A stretch of 64,000 nt of DNA from Escherichia phage vB_EcoM_G10400. Within the stretch, counting starts at the first letter, position 1. Each line of letters begins with the position of its first letter. Location: sequence record MK327937.1; one strand, 5' to 3'. The translations under genes were made by a program, and so were the position numbers. Positions 6,741-50,150 of this stretch are shown here, piece by piece. The notes below the pieces were generated by a model. The model searched no databases. It saw only the letters and a list, made by a program, of their open reading frames with translations, and was not told the origin of the DNA.

Positions 6741-7283
6741 TTAATTCAAAATAGCTACCACCGCACTACGGGGTACTACACTAAAATCACCTGCATGAAC
6801 AACGTTCAGAAGTTCAACACCATCTTCAATCCATTGGTCTGTTACCCAACCACAGACCGAAATAAATGGGGTCTTAATAGCTACTGCACGAGTCAAAAGG
6901 TCAGTAGGATCGCATTCTTGGAAGAGGATAAGCTCTGCTTCAAAGACTATAGTTTTAATTACTTCATCATTATCTAAGCGTTGTGCTCGAATCACATAAG
7001 CTTTATTCTTATCATGCCAATTACTTTTTGAAAAACTTTTAACCACAAACTCGCCTTCACCAAAAACACTGGTCAATGCTTTATAACCCAAATCTAGTTC
7101 AGTAGTTTTAATTTCAGTTTCAACCAGTTTGTAGGTTTTGCCAATTTCGATGGGCCGAGCAGTCATAAAGGTTTCCTTAATTTCTAATGGTTTAACGAGA
7201 GTGCCGTACATGCTTGCTATATCCATATCAAATATTTTATCTATAGGATTTGGGGTGTATTCAGGATTATAATTAAATTTCAT
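6741..7283 (-). CDS. hypothetical protein, paralog of 6167..6664
   Basis: 180 aa; C-terminal VTDQWIEDGVELLNVVHAG motif. Confidence 0.55.
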   Translation of the reverse strand: MKFNYNPEYTPNPIDKIFDMDIASMYGTLVKPLEIKETFMTARPIEIGKTYKLVETEIKTTELDLGYKALTSVFGEGEFVVKSFSKSNWHDKNKAYVIRAQRLDNDEVIKTIVFEAELILFQECDPTDLLTRAVAIKTPFISVCGWVTDQWIEDGVELLNVVHAGDFSVVPRSAVVAILN

Positions 7284-7861: not shown

Positions 7862-8545
7862 TTATCGTTTTGTTGGAAGAGAAAGAGGATCGCATTCTTC
7901 TACTGATGGGGCATCTTCAAGACCCATAGCATACCGCAAAGCATACTTCATCATCAGGATGTCTTTCGCACAGTCATGAATAGAATCATGTGCAACGAAC
8001 CCGTCTAAAGTTCCCTTTGGAAGAGGACATGTGGTCATATCACGAACAAGCAGAAGTGCTTCAATTCTAGTACGAATATCACGTTGATTCCAGAATTTAC
8101 AAGGTTCTAACTTAAATGTGTCAAGCTCATTCTCGGAAATGCCATTAAGACGTTGAATATCGCGAATGAGATCGACTAAAATTGGAAAATCAAACGACAT
8201 TCCACGGCACCAGCCTTGAGATTTCCAAGGATCGATGTTATGTGCATTGATGTAATCATTAAATTTTGCAATACCATCGATAGTGCTTACATCTTCATCT
8301 GATGGCGCAATATTTTTTCGAGCTTCAGGAGACTGATTTTTCCACCATTCAATAGTGCTTTTAGTAAAAAGACGATGTCCTTTTTGGCTTTTTAAATCAA
8401 ACTTGATTTTAATGCCGCGTGAAACTAATTCATCAAATGTTTCAACTACTTCTGGATTAGGGTCAAAGGCAATAACAGCCAAATCAATAACAGCTGCCTT
8501 TTCACCGTTTCCCATTGTTTCAAAATCTATAATAAAATCAAACAT
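7862..8545 (-). CDS. dexA: exonuclease A (DnaQ-like 3'-5' exonuclease)
   Basis: 227 aa; N-terminal FIIDFETMG exonuclease motif; length and position match T4 DexA. Confidence 0.85.
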   Translation of the reverse strand: MFDFIIDFETMGNGEKAAVIDLAVIAFDPNPEVVETFDELVSRGIKIKFDLKSQKGHRLFTKSTIEWWKNQSPEARKNIAPSDEDVSTIDGIAKFNDYINAHNIDPWKSQGWCRGMSFDFPILVDLIRDIQRLNGISENELDTFKLEPCKFWNQRDIRTRIEALLLVRDMTTCPLPKGTLDGFVAHDSIHDCAKDILMMKYALRYAMGLEDAPSVEECDPLSLPTKR

Positions 8546-41479: not shown

Positions 41480-43293
41480 TGGTGTTTAACCCTATGCATG
41501 ATTTCTTTATTTTTGCCGAGATTAAATCCACGTTCGTTCGGATTTCCCAAATAACCACAAGTTCTTCTTATTGTGTTCATCTTTTTAGGATCAGTTTCTC
41601 CACAAATAGAACAAACAAACCCGTTTTCAGTAGGAGTCATTTCATGGGTACTTCCACACGTAAAACATTTATCTACTGGCATGTTAACACCAAAATAATC
41701 TAAATGTTGTGCAGCATAATCCCAGACAGCCTCAAGACCTTTTAGGTTATTTTTCATATCAGGAAGTTCAACATAAGAAATGTGACCACCTGTCGCAATG
41801 AAATGATATGGCGCTTCACGAGAAATTTTTTCAAACGGAGTAATATTTTCTTCTACTGAAACGTGGAAACTATTAGTGTACCAGCCTTTATCGGTAACAT
41901 CTTTTACACTTCCATATTTTTCTGTATCAAGTTTACAGAAGCGATAACAAAGGTTTTCAGCAGGAGTCGAATATAAACTAAAAGCAAATCCAGTTCTTTC
42001 AGTCCACTGTTTAAGATGAGCATTCATTTTAGTTAAAATTTCTTGTCCAATATCACGACCGACAAGAATATTCAATTCGTGAATACCAATGTATCCTAGG
42101 GACACTGAACTTCTACCATTTTTAAATAACTCAATTATATCGTCATCAGGTTTAAGACGAACCCCGAATGCACCTTCTTGGTAAAGAATAGGAGCAACAG
42201 TCGCTTTAACTCCTTTTAAGGAACTAATTCTACACATCAAGGCTTCAAAGCACAGATCCATTCGTTCATTAAATAGCTCAACAAATTTCTGTTCATTGAA
42301 CTGTGTTCCAATATAAGAATCTAATGCGATACGAGGAAGATTCAGTGTTACAACACCGAGATTATTACGTCCATCAAGAATTTCATTACCAGTCGAATCT
42401 TTCCATACGCTCAAGAAACTACGGCAGCCCATCGGAGAAACAGGAATAGATGAACCAGTGATAGCTTTATTGTTCTTAGCTGAAATAATATCAGGATACA
42501 TCCTTTTGCTTGCACACTCTAGAGCAAGCTGCTTAATATCATAGTTCGGATCGTCTTTATAAAGATTAACACCTTCTTCAACGAACATAACAAGCTTAGG
42601 GAAAATAGGAGTTATCCCATCACGACCGAGACCTTTAATACGATTTTTCAGAATTGCTTTCTGAATCATTCGTTCAGTCCAGTCAGTTCCCGTACCAAAT
42701 GTAATTGTTACAAAAGGTGTTTGCCCGTTTGAACTAAAGAGAGTATTTACTTCATATTCATAAGCTTGAAATGCATCGTATACATCTTTTTCTGTTTTAG
42801 ATTGAGCATAATTCAACGCATCAGCGATTTGCCATTTTTCTGCATCCTCAATATGTTTTGCATAGGTGCGTTTAACATAAGGAGAAAGTACTTTATCTAC
42901 ATTAGCAAAAGTCGTTCCGCCGTATTGGTGAGAAGCAACCTGTGCAGTAATTTGTGCCATAATTGCAGTAGCAACTCCAATTGATTTAGGAGTTTCAATC
43001 TGTGCATTACCAAGCTTAAATCCGTTCTCAAGCATTCCTTTTAAATCTACTAAACAGCAATTAGTAAAAGGCAATGATATACTGTAATCTAAATCATGAA
43101 AATGAATTAATCCAACATTATGGGCATTTACAATATGACTTGGAAGAATACGACAAGCGATATGTTTAGAAACAATACCGGCCATTAAATCTCTTTTTGT
43201 TGGAAAGACGCGAGAATCTTTGTTGGCGTTTTCCGTATTTAATTCTTTATCTTTATTTGAAATAAAATTTAAAACATCTTTTTCTAAAGACAT
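41476..43293 (-). CDS. nrdD: anaerobic ribonucleoside-triphosphate reductase (glycyl radical enzyme), uninterrupted
   Basis: 605 aa continuous ORF; C-terminal Zn ribbon CFTCGS...CSICG and glycyl radical motif RTCGYLG. Confidence 0.95.
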   Translation of the reverse strand: MSLEKDVLNFISNKDKELNTENANKDSRVFPTKRDLMAGIVSKHIACRILPSHIVNAHNVGLIHFHDLDYSISLPFTNCCLVDLKGMLENGFKLGNAQIETPKSIGVATAIMAQITAQVASHQYGGTTFANVDKVLSPYVKRTYAKHIEDAEKWQIADALNYAQSKTEKDVYDAFQAYEYEVNTLFSSNGQTPFVTITFGTGTDWTERMIQKAILKNRIKGLGRDGITPIFPKLVMFVEEGVNLYKDDPNYDIKQLALECASKRMYPDIISAKNNKAITGSSIPVSPMGCRSFLSVWKDSTGNEILDGRNNLGVVTLNLPRIALDSYIGTQFNEQKFVELFNERMDLCFEALMCRISSLKGVKATVAPILYQEGAFGVRLKPDDDIIELFKNGRSSVSLGYIGIHELNILVGRDIGQEILTKMNAHLKQWTERTGFAFSLYSTPAENLCYRFCKLDTEKYGSVKDVTDKGWYTNSFHVSVEENITPFEKISREAPYHFIATGGHISYVELPDMKNNLKGLEAVWDYAAQHLDYFGVNMPVDKCFTCGSTHEMTPTENGFVCSICGETDPKKMNTIRRTCGYLGNPNERGFNLGKNKEIMHRVKHQ

Positions 43294-44105
43294 AATTCTA
43301 ATTTATCCTTTTGAAATTCTTCGTCTAAATATGGGTTCCAACCCATTTTAAACCTTTTGATGAAATTATCAATTCTAAATTTCGGTAAGTTTAAATCCGC
43401 AAAAATAGATGATTTACTTTTAAAATCTGGACTTAAATAATCATATAAAATTTCTGCGTATTTTAACCATAATATACAAGTACCAGATTTAATTGCTCTT
43501 GGAGTTTTCCAAGGTTTTACACCATACATCGGATTTCCGCTTCCTTTATGCCTGATAGAAGATGAAATTCCAATTTTAATTTTAGCTTCCTTTGTATGCG
43601 AAAATCCACGATGTGGATTTTCTTTCCAGTATTTTTTAGAAGCTTCTGATATTTTCTTTCTAGCTAAATTAGTATGATGCTTTCCATAAAATCCATGATT
43701 TTTGCCTTTATTACGATTTCTTTTAATCATGGTTATTGATTGCTTTTCTCTAGTTTCTTTAGAAGGAGAAATACCATATGTCGTAAATCGGCCATCAGCA
43801 TATGCTAAATTAAAATACTCTTTATTCCATACATCTTTTTCTATATTCTTTTGAAATTCAGCTTCAATGCTAGTTATTTGTTCATCTCCGACTAATTGAA
43901 AATATAATATTTCAACTTTCGGCGTTTCTTTCAATAAGGCTTTTTGAAATTCGGAAGATGACGAAGACGAATAATAAAATTTACCATTTTTATCAATAAT
44001 ATTCGTTCCATCAAAAGTGCAATTGGTTTTACTTCCAATGTAATAATATGGTGGGGTTTTAGCATTAATTCTATTAATAAATGATAGTTTATATACTACA
44101 TTCAT
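43284..44105 (-). CDS. homing-endonuclease-like protein (GIY-YIG/Seg-like), paralog of 30916..31803
   Basis: 273 aa; N-terminal VYKLSF...YYIGSK...FDGTNIID; inserted between gene 49 and nrdD with overlaps. Confidence 0.55.
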   Translation of the reverse strand: MNVVYKLSFINRINAKTPPYYYIGSKTNCTFDGTNIIDKNGKFYYSSSSSSEFQKALLKETPKVEILYFQLVGDEQITSIEAEFQKNIEKDVWNKEYFNLAYADGRFTTYGISPSKETREKQSITMIKRNRNKGKNHGFYGKHHTNLARKKISEASKKYWKENPHRGFSHTKEAKIKIGISSSIRHKGSGNPMYGVKPWKTPRAIKSGTCILWLKYAEILYDYLSPDFKSKSSIFADLNLPKFRIDNFIKRFKMGWNPYLDEEFQKDKLELCL

Positions 44106-46452: not shown

Positions 46453-46842
46453 TTAATCCAAAATATTATTAGGCATTGGTTGAACACTCACAAGTTCTTT
46501 AAAGAACTCAGTAGAGTCAGGCAATTTAACCATTTCCGGAGCATGCTTACTGAATTTATGTTTACATTGACGGCATTTATATTCAAGCTCTGGTTTACGC
46601 CAGTTAATCAATTGAACTTGTTCAGTACCGCATTCAGGGCAATTAGGAACGTTTTTAGAAGCTCTTTCACGTCGTTCAACCATAGCCATAATAGCATCCC
46701 ATGCTGGAGGTTTAAAATCTAAATCGTCGCAGCCGTGAATCTTTCCACGCATTTCCATATCATCTTCCTCACCAGCCATAATAATTTTAATTAAACTGGA
46801 ATTACTTGAAGCTGCAATGTCTTCTAATAAACGCTTTTTCAT
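46453..46842 (-). CDS. hypothetical zinc-ribbon protein
   Basis: 129 aa; CPECG...CRQC motif. Confidence 0.55.
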
Positions 46843-47765
46843 TTCAATACCTCAATAGCATTACGTAAACCATTTGCTTTTGCATTAAGAGCTTTTAACA
46901 ATTTGGTGTGTTCTGCAATTTGGGCTTCAACTTCAATCAAACGGGCATTGAGATATTCACGTTCTTCACTCAGATTATCAACCTTTTCTACTTTAGGCTC
47001 TTTTACAACTGTCTTATATGTATTAGGGTTCTTCAGTTTAATTAGAATGCGTGAACTGTATAACATTGAACCATTATCTTCGGTTTCATCATACATTTCT
47101 ACTACGTCCATGATTTTTAACATCATGCGGAGTTTATAAGACAATGAACGAATAGTTTTGTTGTGCTTATTAATTTCTCTAGAGTTCATGGTGCCGAGAT
47201 TACGTGAGTAATAATAAGGAACCTGGATATTAATTAACACTGATGAACCACCTGGCTTGTGTGTTACTTCATCAGCAATAACCCAATCCTTAACATGAAC
47301 TGTATTTGTACGGTCATCGCCTGCGGTAAATAGTTTGCAAGCATGCTTAAAAAGCATATTCACTTGGGTATTGAATTGACAAGCAAATTTATCAGCAAAT
47401 TTAGTTTCAGGAATGGTAGATAACCAATCAGCTAAATGGGTCTTTTTAACATCGTTAACAATAGTAAATTCAACCAAATCGGTTATAGATGTCGCAGTTT
47501 TAATGAATCTCGGCTTCATAAAGTTTTTAATGTTATCGCGAGCTACAGTAGAAGATAACATACGAGAACGTTTAAACCATTCAAGCAAATTGCCTAACGA
47601 ATGAGAATAAGCGTTTTGAGTATCTTTACAGATATGATTTTCCTGGCCAACATATTGAAGGAAATCACGAAGAATATTATTAATTACTGCTCTGTGTCCG
47701 ATCTGATAATTGTGGTGTTTAGTAATAAGACTGTCAAAATAATCAATATAATGTTTACGAGTCAT
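46839..47765 (-). CDS. hypothetical protein with C-terminal coiled coil (tandem family member 1)
   Basis: 308 aa from ATG 47765 with GAGGAG RBS; C-terminal heptad-like region [42 protein letters not shown]. Confidence 0.6.
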   Translation of the reverse strand: MTRKHYIDYFDSLITKHHNYQIGHRAVINNILRDFLQYVGQENHICKDTQNAYSHSLGNLLEWFKRSRMLSSTVARDNIKNFMKPRFIKTATSITDLVEFTIVNDVKKTHLADWLSTIPETKFADKFACQFNTQVNMLFKHACKLFTAGDDRTNTVHVKDWVIADEVTHKPGGSSVLINIQVPYYYSRNLGTMNSREINKHNKTIRSLSYKLRMMLKIMDVVEMYDETEDNGSMLYSSRILIKLKNPNTYKTVVKEPKVEKVDNLSEEREYLNARLIEVEAQIAEHTKLLKALNAKANGLRNAIEVLK

Positions 47766-47793
47766 ATTAATCTCCTCAGTAGAAAGTAAGAAC

Positions 47794-47823
47794 ATTATAC
47801 CACATCCTTGTGGCAAAGTAAAC
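47794..47823 (-). promoter_or_regulatory. early promoter
   Basis: minus strand gtttactttgccacaaggatgtggtataat, 1 mismatch from the promoter at 2418..2447. Confidence 0.6.
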
Positions 47824-48845
47824 TAGTTCAGTGCATTTAGTGCGTTGTTCAGTTTAGAACGTTGCTTTGTCAGATTTTGAACCCTTGACTGAGCTTGTTC
47901 TAACGCCTTTTCAGCTTCTAGCACTTCATTGGTCGCTTTAACGAGTTCATCATCTACTGCCTTAAGAGACTTCTCAATCGCGTCAGCGTGCCATTTTTCT
48001 ACAGGTTTAAAATTTGAATTTTCAGTAGGAAGAAAACTCACTTTATTAAGTTTACATGCATCTATATTGCTTGAGCTATACATCCAAAATTTAGGATCGT
48101 TTGATAAGTAATTGGATAAATTTAAGTTATCTTGCACTTCCTGCTTTTTCTCTTGCGGGACTTCGTCCTTTCTCAAAAAATCGTATTTAAATGAAACGAT
48201 CATATCAAGTTCATATGTTGTTGTATGTTCCCAATTTCGCTCAAAACGAGGTAAAATCTTAGATTGAACAGCAGCAACAACATCCATATACTTAAATGCT
48301 TCTGTCAACTGTGATTTAAGGCATTCACAAATTGAAAGAGAATTTTTAGTATTAGGCTTAAAGCTAATTCGTGCAGTTCTATTATTTTCTTTAGATGGTC
48401 TTACTTCCATTTGAAGAGTATAACCATCAAATTTCAGATTCTTTAAGTTAATATCAGAACCTTTTAATCGACTAGCCGTCGACAAAATTTGCTTTAATTG
48501 TCTACGGAACAGAGCAATAAATCTCCATTCAAGACGATAATGATTTGGATTGAAAAATCCAGATGATAAATCGACCTTACTTTGACCAACGCCTCGAACA
48601 AATAGAGGATTTTTATAATCAATAGTTTTACAGAAATCGGTGAGCTGCTCACGAGCAGTCATTTGTGTAATATACCCCGCTTCATTAAAATTACGCACCC
48701 ATTCACTGCTGTTTAGATGTTTAAAGGCGTGAATGGAACAATTAACTTTATCAGGGTCTAAATTATTTTCACACAAAAATGTCATAACATCACAAGTATA
48801 ACTGGCATTACGAACCATATCTTCAATTTGAGAACGAGTTTTCAT
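47823..48845 (-). CDS. hypothetical protein with C-terminal coiled coil (family member 2)
   Basis: 340 aa; shares KxMDVV motif with member 1; C-terminal coiled coil. Confidence 0.6.
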   Translation of the reverse strand: MKTRSQIEDMVRNASYTCDVMTFLCENNLDPDKVNCSIHAFKHLNSSEWVRNFNEAGYITQMTAREQLTDFCKTIDYKNPLFVRGVGQSKVDLSSGFFNPNHYRLEWRFIALFRRQLKQILSTASRLKGSDINLKNLKFDGYTLQMEVRPSKENNRTARISFKPNTKNSLSICECLKSQLTEAFKYMDVVAAVQSKILPRFERNWEHTTTYELDMIVSFKYDFLRKDEVPQEKKQEVQDNLNLSNYLSNDPKFWMYSSSNIDACKLNKVSFLPTENSNFKPVEKWHADAIEKSLKAVDDELVKATNEVLEAEKALEQAQSRVQNLTKQRSKLNNALNALN

Positions 48846-48853
48846 GGTGTTCC

Positions 48854-49741
48854 TTAAGATTTAAGTAAATCAACAATTTTAATTAATTTTTCACGCTCAG
48901 ATTTAGCTTTACTACTCAATCCAGATAGTCTGAAAATTTCATCATCATATTGCTGAATAGAAATATTTAGCTCTTCAATCTGCTTATTAAAATAAGCAAT
49001 TTGTTCAGAATGTTTTTCATTACTGCGAACTGGTACAGGTTTTGTAGGTAATTTAGATGAACTGGATTCATCCGGGCGATAAATTAAAATACAACTTGAA
49101 CCAATCGGACATTTAGCACCAGACACATATTCTAATGTTCCAGCTTCTTTTAAAACTTCAAAAGCTAAACAGAGATGATGACCCATATTGACATAATCTG
49201 TAGAGCGAGCTCTGATGTAATAATCATCTCCACGAATACTAAATTTAAAGCATTTAAGGTCTTCTGTATTATTGGTCTTAAAAATCATTTGTTTATCTAG
49301 ACCTTTAGCTAATCGAGCGCCTAATGCTAATAATCGTCGTTGATTTTCCCACAAATCCGCGATCATTTGGTCAAATGATAATTTCGGCATTAGTCGACCA
49401 TAAAGGTCGTATCCTTTATTATAATTGCGAAGGATTTCACTCGCGTTAATGCGAGACAACGCTCCAATTTTATTAAGGGCTTTCATGATGCGATTAGATA
49501 AAAGCATTCCAGACCCGTTTGTTCGTTGTAAATGTTTTTCTAATCCAAATCCAATATCAACTTTAAACTTATCTAAAATTTCGGCGTGAACATCTTTATC
49601 AATAACATTTAAATTTAGTACTGGGTTAAATTTATGAAAAAATTTATCTGACTCGTCGTGTTGAAGTACAGTCCATTCATTTGATTTTTTATTAACTAAA
49701 GATTTAATTACTGCATTGACATTATTAATTACTACTGACAT
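48854..49741 (-). CDS. hypothetical protein with C-terminal coiled coil (family member 3)
   Basis: 295 aa from ATG 49741 with GAGGA RBS (track start TTG). Confidence 0.6.
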   Translation of the reverse strand: MSVVINNVNAVIKSLVNKKSNEWTVLQHDESDKFFHKFNPVLNLNVIDKDVHAEILDKFKVDIGFGLEKHLQRTNGSGMLLSNRIMKALNKIGALSRINASEILRNYNKGYDLYGRLMPKLSFDQMIADLWENQRRLLALGARLAKGLDKQMIFKTNNTEDLKCFKFSIRGDDYYIRARSTDYVNMGHHLCLAFEVLKEAGTLEYVSGAKCPIGSSCILIYRPDESSSSKLPTKPVPVRSNEKHSEQIAYFNKQIEELNISIQQYDDEIFRLSGLSSKAKSEREKLIKIVDLLKS

Positions 49742-49748
49742 ATTTTCC

Positions 49749-50150
49749 TCACTCAATTTTACCAATTACGCGGAATAAGATTGAACAGACTATATAAGCA
49801 CCGCATATAGATTGAACTAATGCCATTCCAAAGAACCAAACAATATTATCAAACCATGTCTGTTTTACGTCGAAAGGACGTAAACTTACAGTAATATTAT
49901 CGCCTTTTTCTATTGAAGAATACATCTCCGGTGAAATATATTCACTAAATCTATAACCGTCATTTAGTTCATATACGGCAATAAACGATAAACTAGACCC
50001 CTTTCCTTGAGTTCCTGCAAGGGTATTAACTACAGTAACATCATAATCTTTATAATGCATATAATCATTAATAGCATAATAACCATATGCAATTACTATA
50101 CATAAACAACATATCAATAAATTCAATCTTTTAATTATCAACTGTTTCAT
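49749..50150 (-). CDS. hypothetical membrane protein
   Basis: 133 aa; N- and C-terminal TM segments; middle-type promoter upstream. Confidence 0.55.
   Translation of the reverse strand: MKQLIIKRLNLLICCLCIVIAYGYYAINDYMHYKDYDVTVVNTLAGTQGKGSSLSFIAVYELNDGYRFSEYISPEMYSSIEKGDNITVSLRPFDVKQTWFDNIVWFFGMALVQSICGAYIVCSILFRVIGKIE

Follow-up and report, generated by a model that had tools for sequence, protein, structure and literature searches.

The 64,000-nucleotide stretch of Escherichia phage vB_EcoM_G10400 analysed here (MK327937.1; hereafter the window) belongs to a Tequatrovirus-like (T4-type) phage genome, and its sequence runs against the direction of early transcription. It contains three consecutive genes that, judging by identity and position, are the orthologues of T4 nrdC.6, nrdC.5 and nrdC.3. 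They constitute a T4-type accessory array, early-transcribed and here without nrdC.4. The explanation that is slightly favoured overall combines this assignment with paralogy of the NrdC.3/NrdC.4 (NrdC.3/4) and NrdC.5 families, with NrdC.6 as a probable further branch, and with a role for the products as defence inhibitors built from a head, a linker and a tail. The T4 genes themselves are already known, and the anti-Dsr1 role of nrdC.5 is published; what is new here is modest, and comprises the homology of NrdC.3/4 and NrdC.5, the probable membership of NrdC.6, the pattern of conserved tails and variable heads, and the recombinational loss of nrdC.4.

All comparisons with T4 used the reference genome NC_000866. 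The 340-amino-acid (aa) protein shares 92% identity with T4 NrdC.5 over 340 aa, has the same length and occupies the corresponding position; its 28 substitutions relative to the T4 allele are concentrated in the linker and in the N-terminus, where model confidence is low. It matches the Pfam family DUF7235 (PF23882) at 395.3 bits (cut-off 30) with residues 1-340 covered, and a protein of phage vB_EcoM_G10400 has the identical sequence (100%). With T4 NrdC.6, the 295-aa protein shares 93% identity over 259 aa; it matches phrog_2257 (E 1.2e-149), and its homologues bear PF26899. The 308-aa protein is the most divergent, with only 60% identity to T4 NrdC.3 and 26% to T4 NrdC.4 (E 1e-9). Its residues 1-308 match phrog_1435 (E 2.1e-116), the PHROG that also holds T4 NrdC.4, and all NrdC.3 homologues bear PF26897.

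An earlier sequence-only reading, made without database searches, had described consecutive open reading frames (ORFs) of 308, 340 and 295 aa, each with its own ribosome-binding site. The ORFs are present on the minus strand where it placed them, and a Shine-Dalgarno sequence lies 5-6 nucleotides before each ATG: GAGG for nrdC.6, AAGGA for nrdC.5 and GAGGAG for nrdC.3. The 308 aa are counted from the ATG behind GAGGAG; the mechanical ORF begins 17 codons earlier, at a TTG. The array turns out to consist of known T4 genes, which the letters by themselves could not tell that reading. It had also placed an early promoter before the first gene; a promoter-like site is indeed found there, but this gene is first only in window coordinates and is transcribed last. 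The features of the array are collected in the table below.

Features of the nrdC.6-nrdC.5-nrdC.3 array, in window coordinates
Feature	Position	Strand	Remarks
nrdC.6-type gene	48854..49741	minus	295 aa; first of three in transcription order
nrdC.5 gene	47823..48845	minus	340 aa; middle of three
nrdC.3-type gene	46839..47765	minus	308 aa; last in transcription order, divergent allele
T4-early-type promoter-like site before nrdC.3	47794..47822	minus	TTTACT, 17 nucleotides with TG, TATAAT
NrdC.6 tail, residues 242-295	48857..49018	minus	predicted helical hairpin; AlphaFold2 helices 242-271 and 276-294
NrdC.5 tail, residues 282-340	47826..48002	minus	single long predicted helix
NrdC.3 tail, residues 263-308	46842..46979	minus	heptad score peak 270-305
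KIMDVV motif, NrdC.3 residues 217-222	47100..47117	minus	read from sequence; aligned by hhalign with the NrdC.5 motif
KYMDVV motif, NrdC.5 residues 185-190	48276..48293	minus	last part of predicted helix 169-185, then short gap up to strand 190-201

A published function is available for NrdC.5. Srikant, Guegler and Laub (eLife 2022; PMC9391042) reported, on genetic rather than mechanistic grounds, that T4 NrdC.5 overcomes Dsr1, a SIR2-domain (sirtuin) defence. In their work, a T4 clone with a deletion removing nrdC.5 did not plate on E. coli ECOR17, plating was restored by deletion of dsr1 from ECOR17, cloned dsr1 shielded MG1655 from the same nrdC.5-less clone, and plasmid-borne nrdC.5 gave back infection on dsr1 cells (PMC9391042). 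The activity was shown for the T4 allele, of which the copy in the window is the orthologue. The sequence-only reading had taken the tandem genes as a sign of an arms race with the host, a view that gains support for its second member only, from the action of T4 nrdC.5 against Dsr1; for NrdC.3 and NrdC.6 we infer it. The literature search found no other phage protein reported against Dsr1 specifically, and no mention of a function for nrdC.3, nrdC.4 or nrdC.6. A 2026 paper describes an NAD+ (nicotinamide adenine dinucleotide) salvage system, NARP3, which also counteracts DSR1, and still calls DSR1 'poorly characterized'. PADLOC detected nothing relevant, and Pfam identified DUF7235 only; a 'PHL' match for NrdC.3 (21 bits) fell under the 23.7 cut-off and was rejected. 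Enzymatic restoration of NAD+ was likewise set aside as a mechanism because no enzyme domain was detected.

The relationship between NrdC.3/4 and NrdC.5 becomes visible in profile-profile comparison. With shallow alignments, hhalign gave weak results, and distant NrdC.5 relatives and array members of other genera were needed. The diversified alignments therefore combined three homologue searches with such distant relatives and with members from Dhakavirus IME08, Mosigvirus p000y and Gaprivervirus SP18. The NrdC.5 family is very narrow, since its profile found only 13 matches among 1.84 billion representative sequences and recruited no other family. With the diversified alignments, NrdC.3/4 and NrdC.5 are matched at 96.7% (E 4.5e-10) in local mode, over 127 columns that all lie in the globular part, and at 98.4% (E 6.9e-14) in global mode. 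When the tails are cut, the values remain at 95.2% and 97.2% (E 2.4e-8 and 8.2e-11). The true pair scores about 75, against 13-17 for reversed-sequence controls. The KxMDVV motif that the sequence-only reading had noted in its first two members occurs as KIMDVV in the 308-aa protein and KYMDVV in the 340-aa protein; the two copies occupy aligned columns of the profiles, and in the NrdC.5 model the motif runs from the end of the second core helix into the next strand. The paralogy proposed for these two members is thus supported at 95-98% by profile-profile alignment even though BLASTP is blank. On these comparisons the homology can be considered established, and the two families are anciently diverged paralogues. 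A search of all 110 window ORFs with hidden Markov models of the families detected no additional members.

The third member, NrdC.6, is likely, though with less assurance, to be a third branch of the same superfamily. Its full-length profile matches that of NrdC.3/4 at 40%, that of NrdC.5 at 5-45% and a merged NrdC.3/4 and NrdC.5 profile at 57-77%. The hhalign scores are 36.2 for NrdC.3/4 with NrdC.6 and 27.1 for NrdC.5 with NrdC.6; the true scores of NrdC.6 span 27-40, and reversed controls 10.5-18.4. Local alignments from three independent profiles hit the same consistent NrdC.6 segment, 'LSRxNAxxIL...NQRRLLALGARL', and gp94 of Tegunavirus fHe-Yen9-01 matches NrdC.3/4 at 87-92% and NrdC.6 at 51% over those same regions. 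The AlphaFold2 models of NrdC.5 and NrdC.6 present the same order of elements: a long helix, a β-hairpin, a helix, a β-hairpin, a disordered linker and one or more C-terminal helices. In Foldseek searches of BFVD, both models hit A0A0A0PZG4, A0A1V0DXL6 and A0A2Z4QAR2, uncharacterised proteins of about 310-330 aa from other T4-like phages, which are among the few significant matches. Finally, the order of C6-type, C5-type and C3/4-type genes between nrdC.8 and nrdC.2 is kept in four genera, namely Dhakavirus, Mosigvirus and Gaprivervirus in addition to that of this phage.

Yersinia phage fHe-Yen9-01 has two proteins of the same architecture, gp94 (292 aa; locus L003, 9459-10337) and gp111 (313 aa; locus L003, 16382-17323), which are encoded at separate positions rather than in tandem. 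A tblastn search with both found sequences of their own genus only and gained no bridging sequences, which shows how fast these families diverge. A related-locus search with the NrdC.6 alignment returned close relatives only.

A number of observations weigh against the favoured explanation. Pairwise BLASTP among the three proteins finds no significant similarity, so that paralogy is not visible at the plain pairwise level. With the tails cut, the NrdC.6 comparisons drop to 0.4-13% (1-2.5% with NrdC.3/4 and 0.4-13% with NrdC.5), and the link of NrdC.6 may therefore partly reflect the composition of helical tails. The likeness of the NrdC.5 and NrdC.6 models is one of the order of elements, with the pLDDT (predicted local distance difference test) of NrdC.5 only moderate, at 66, and the Foldseek TM (template modelling) scores to the shared BFVD neighbours are low, at 0.3-0.5. 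Functional data, genetic rather than mechanistic, exist for one member only, NrdC.5. Moreover, the tail of T4 nrdC.6 has been lost by a frameshift (see below), which implies that the tail, or the whole gene, is dispensable in the laboratory.

Several of these points, together with the 5% local match of NrdC.5 and NrdC.6 and the fact that Pfam and PHROGs hold three families apart (NrdC.3 and NrdC.4 in phrog_1435, NrdC.5 in DUF7235 and phrog_2351, NrdC.6 in phrog_2257), could be read to mean that NrdC.6 is an unrelated gene with a helical C-terminus by chance. In that case only NrdC.3/4 and NrdC.5 would be related, only nrdC.5 would be an anti-defence gene, and the array would be just a series of accessory genes that serve unrelated functions. 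We consider this unlikely, given the convergence of the three local alignments on one region, true scores above those of the reversed controls, matching predicted topologies with BFVD neighbours in common, the bridging position of gp94 and the preserved gene order. The paralogy that the sequence-only reading had extended to its third member is accordingly retained as likely, with support of 40-77% at full length and 0.4-13% without tails.

Each of the three proteins ends in a C-terminal tail. The sequence-only reading had claimed heptad-like C-termini and had proposed coiled-coil and structure predictions as a check. With a simple score of the a and d positions, tested against 200 shuffles, the top heptad segment lies at or near the C-terminus in each protein. 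The segments in NrdC.5 (283-340) and NrdC.6 (242-275) were reached by 0/200 shuffles, whereas that in NrdC.3 (270-305) is marginal, being reached by 5% of shuffles. Monomer models of NrdC.5 and NrdC.6 agree with the claim. The AlphaFold2 model of NrdC.5, with pLDDT values of 80-93 over most of the core, contains a 58-residue helix (282-339, block pLDDT 86-95) after a disordered linker at 224-278. In the NrdC.6 model (pLDDT 79.8), the C-terminus consists of a hairpin of 30- and 19-residue helices, and in this monomer the tail folds back on itself as an intramolecular hairpin. No relative with a solved structure was found for any of the three families in a sequence search of the PDB.

Within every lineage, conservation is highest in the tail. 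Among NrdC.3 alleles, the head is 54-79% identical and the tail 78-83%; the corresponding values are 40-50% and 59-65% for NrdC.4, 32-44% and 66% for NrdC.5 compared with P0197, and 18-30% and 61% for NrdC.6 compared with the Mosigvirus copy. Across genera, NrdC.6 tails are 54-70% identical, core domains 30-66% and the N-terminal 80 residues 16-26%. The conserved part, on these identities, is the tail and not the head. The tails of the lineages also end similarly, as in RLEQALQLIK, KLNNALNALN and KLIKIVDLLKS; the pattern L..[AISV][LIVM]..[LI][KN] ends just these 3 of the 110 window ORFs, a count that is illustrative only because the pattern was defined post hoc. Taken together, a shared design is predicted, in which a fast-diverging α/β head is connected by a disordered linker to a conserved heptad-type helical tail of 45-60 residues; the head-linker-tail architecture was predicted for NrdC.5 and NrdC.6. 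One further sequence, P0202 (173 aa; locus L020, 120-641), carries a tail that is almost identical to that of NrdC.5 on an unrelated N-terminus. Its sole contig is 803 bp long and could be a chimeric metagenomic assembly, and the hint of a movable tail was for this reason set aside and not used as evidence.

In T4, the array contains four genes, nrdC.3, nrdC.4, nrdC.5 and nrdC.6; nrdC.4 is missing in this phage. A DNA alignment of window positions 47740-47860 (minus strand) with positions 7890-8010 and 6835-6955 of the T4 locus L001 shows that the 5' end of nrdC.3 is of the T4 nrdC.4 type. It agrees with T4 nrdC.4 in promoter, 5' leader, ribosome-binding site and the four initial codons; the only base that differs lies upstream of the promoter, and an identical promoter-like sequence stands before nrdC.4 in T4. 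Past the common ACTCGTAA, the sequence changes over to the nrdC.3 type. Because the 5' segment is nrdC.4-like and the sequence that follows is nrdC.3-like, the alignment shows that nrdC.4 was lost when the two paralogues recombined at their similar 5' ends. Unlike T4 nrdC.3, nrdC.3 in this phage is thus a 60%-identity allele behind the nrdC.4 promoter.

The NrdC.6 genes of the two phages differ in another respect. The T4 reference gene (L001 8990-9165, compared with window 48840-49010) has a 1-nucleotide deletion, GAGCTAAATATT to GAGCT-GATATT, that causes a frameshift. The annotated T4 NrdC.6 is therefore 275 aa long and without the conserved tail, which the 70-nucleotide "intergenic" gap still encodes out of frame. 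In contrast, the copy in this phage retains its tail.

Array genes often decay or rearrange in other phages too. Shigella phage SP18 has its NrdC.5-type gene split over two ORFs (170 and 125 aa; locus L006, 6956-7860) that both match the NrdC.5 profile, and the gene is probably, to judge from this arrangement, a pseudogene. A 299-aa protein, P0033, on contigs of up to 167 kb, fuses NrdC.5 (residues ~146-270) with NrdC.3 (residues ~136-308) through a short common 'VN', and looks like a deletion product uniting two array members. Within the 378-aa NrdC.6 of Shigella phage Sf25 (P0092), about 83 residues are duplicated in tandem, with the repeat IRAHSTDYVN...NKQIEEL.

It is conceivable, if quite improbable, that the proteins assemble into one hetero-oligomeric complex that is held together by the tails and jointly hits one target. 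Across genera, the lineages are all found together and in one constant order, and every lineage retains its own conserved tail with C-terminal ends that are alike, as such a complex would lead one to expect. Against this stand the losses of single members, including nrdC.4 in this phage, the split C5-type gene of SP18 and the frameshifted tail of T4 nrdC.6. In addition, plasmid-expressed nrdC.5 was by itself able to restore infection of dsr1 cells (PMC9391042; the end-points of the phage's deletion are not in the text).

The favoured reading, of a family of defence inhibitors, would instead have the head bind and block a specific host defence protein, or act as a decoy for it, while the predicted tail would oligomerise the inhibitor or dock it to a common partner. 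In the same way, NrdC.3 and NrdC.6 would act against other defences. The number of copies changes through recombination.

The distribution of the genes, which the sequence-only reading had suggested comparing across T-even phages, is patchy in the phage collection. It contains 653 records of NrdC.3, 554 of NrdC.4, 552 of NrdC.5 and 741 of NrdC.6, and the presence of nrdC.4 and nrdC.5 varies among records. NrdC.3 falls into three discrete allele classes, whose identity to the copy in the window is about 92-99% in one, 74-78% in another and about 59% in the third. One viable evolved T4 clone has lost nrdC.5 (PMC9391042). Gene 49, pin, nrdC and nrdC.1 of the window are 96-100% identical to their T4 counterparts, and the flanking genes overall 95-100%; since NrdC.3 is only 60% identical, the array is a local peak of divergence. 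Phage anti-defence genes are early-expressed, non-essential, hypervariable and patchily distributed among close relatives, and the array fits this profile with its early-type promoter-like site, allele classes, patchy presence, local divergence peak and the loss of nrdC.5 in that viable clone.

These features also bear on a further alternative, that the proteins serve nucleotide metabolism or replication, as scaffolds or regulators, and are not host-interaction factors. The genes do adjoin nrdC, nrdD and nrdG, and many GenBank records name the homologues of nrdC.3, nrdC.4, nrdC.5 and nrdC.6 'thioredoxin'. However, a Pfam scan found no thioredoxin or other enzyme domain in the three proteins, and the labels therefore seem to have been carried over from the name of the nrdC gene. 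Extreme divergence and variable presence are atypical of core metabolism, and the nrdC.5 phenotype is defence-specific. We regard a metabolic role as extremely improbable.

A broader idea can be offered only tentatively, and is rather doubtful at present: the nrdC.3/.4/.5/.6 array may belong, as one branch, to a superfamily of modular inhibitors of defence systems that extends across the Straboviridae. Its members would combine a hypervariable head, retargeted to different defences (Dsr1 for NrdC.5), with a conserved coiled-coil tail for oligomerisation or docking to a hub, and recombination would shift both copy number and specificity.

Two genes near the array differ from the T4 arrangement as well. 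The nrdC.2 homologue (window 46453-46842, minus) encodes 129 aa, compared with 104 aa in T4, with only 78% identity, which makes it second in divergence within the neighbourhood; it has a CxxC...CxxC zinc-ribbon-like segment. A 273-aa ORF (window 43284-44105, minus) with a NUMOD3 motif (E 6e-7) adjoins gene 49, at a site taken up in the T4 reference by the end of nrdD; it probably encodes a free-standing homing endonuclease.

For annotation, it follows that 'thioredoxin', as many phage records call these genes, is wrong, and that the T4 reference nrdC.6 is a frameshifted copy. The domain map of variable head, disordered linker and conserved helical tail suggests testable dissections of NrdC.5. 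As syntenic and probably paralogous neighbours of NrdC.5, nrdC.3, nrdC.4 and nrdC.6 become candidates for inhibiting other defences or further variants of Dsr1.

Among known anti-defence systems, one parallel is DSAD1, with which phage SPbeta inhibits DSR2. In that system, too, a phage protein neutralises a SIR2-domain defence, there an NADase, and the direct binding of DSAD1 may by analogy provide a working model, and a lead, for the action of NrdC.5. No sequence or fold relationship was found between the NrdC proteins and DSAD1, and to our knowledge DSAD1 has no comparable coiled-coil tail. The array can also be compared with the dmd-tifA-adfA 'anti-TA island' (TA, toxin-antitoxin) of T4 and with anti-CRISPR loci, which it resembles in that its genes are early-expressed, non-essential, fast-diverging and clustered, and vary in presence or absence among close relatives. 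In those loci, neighbouring genes are usually unrelated, whereas the neighbours in the nrdC.6-nrdC.5-nrdC.3 array are apparently paralogues that have diverged but have an architecture in common.

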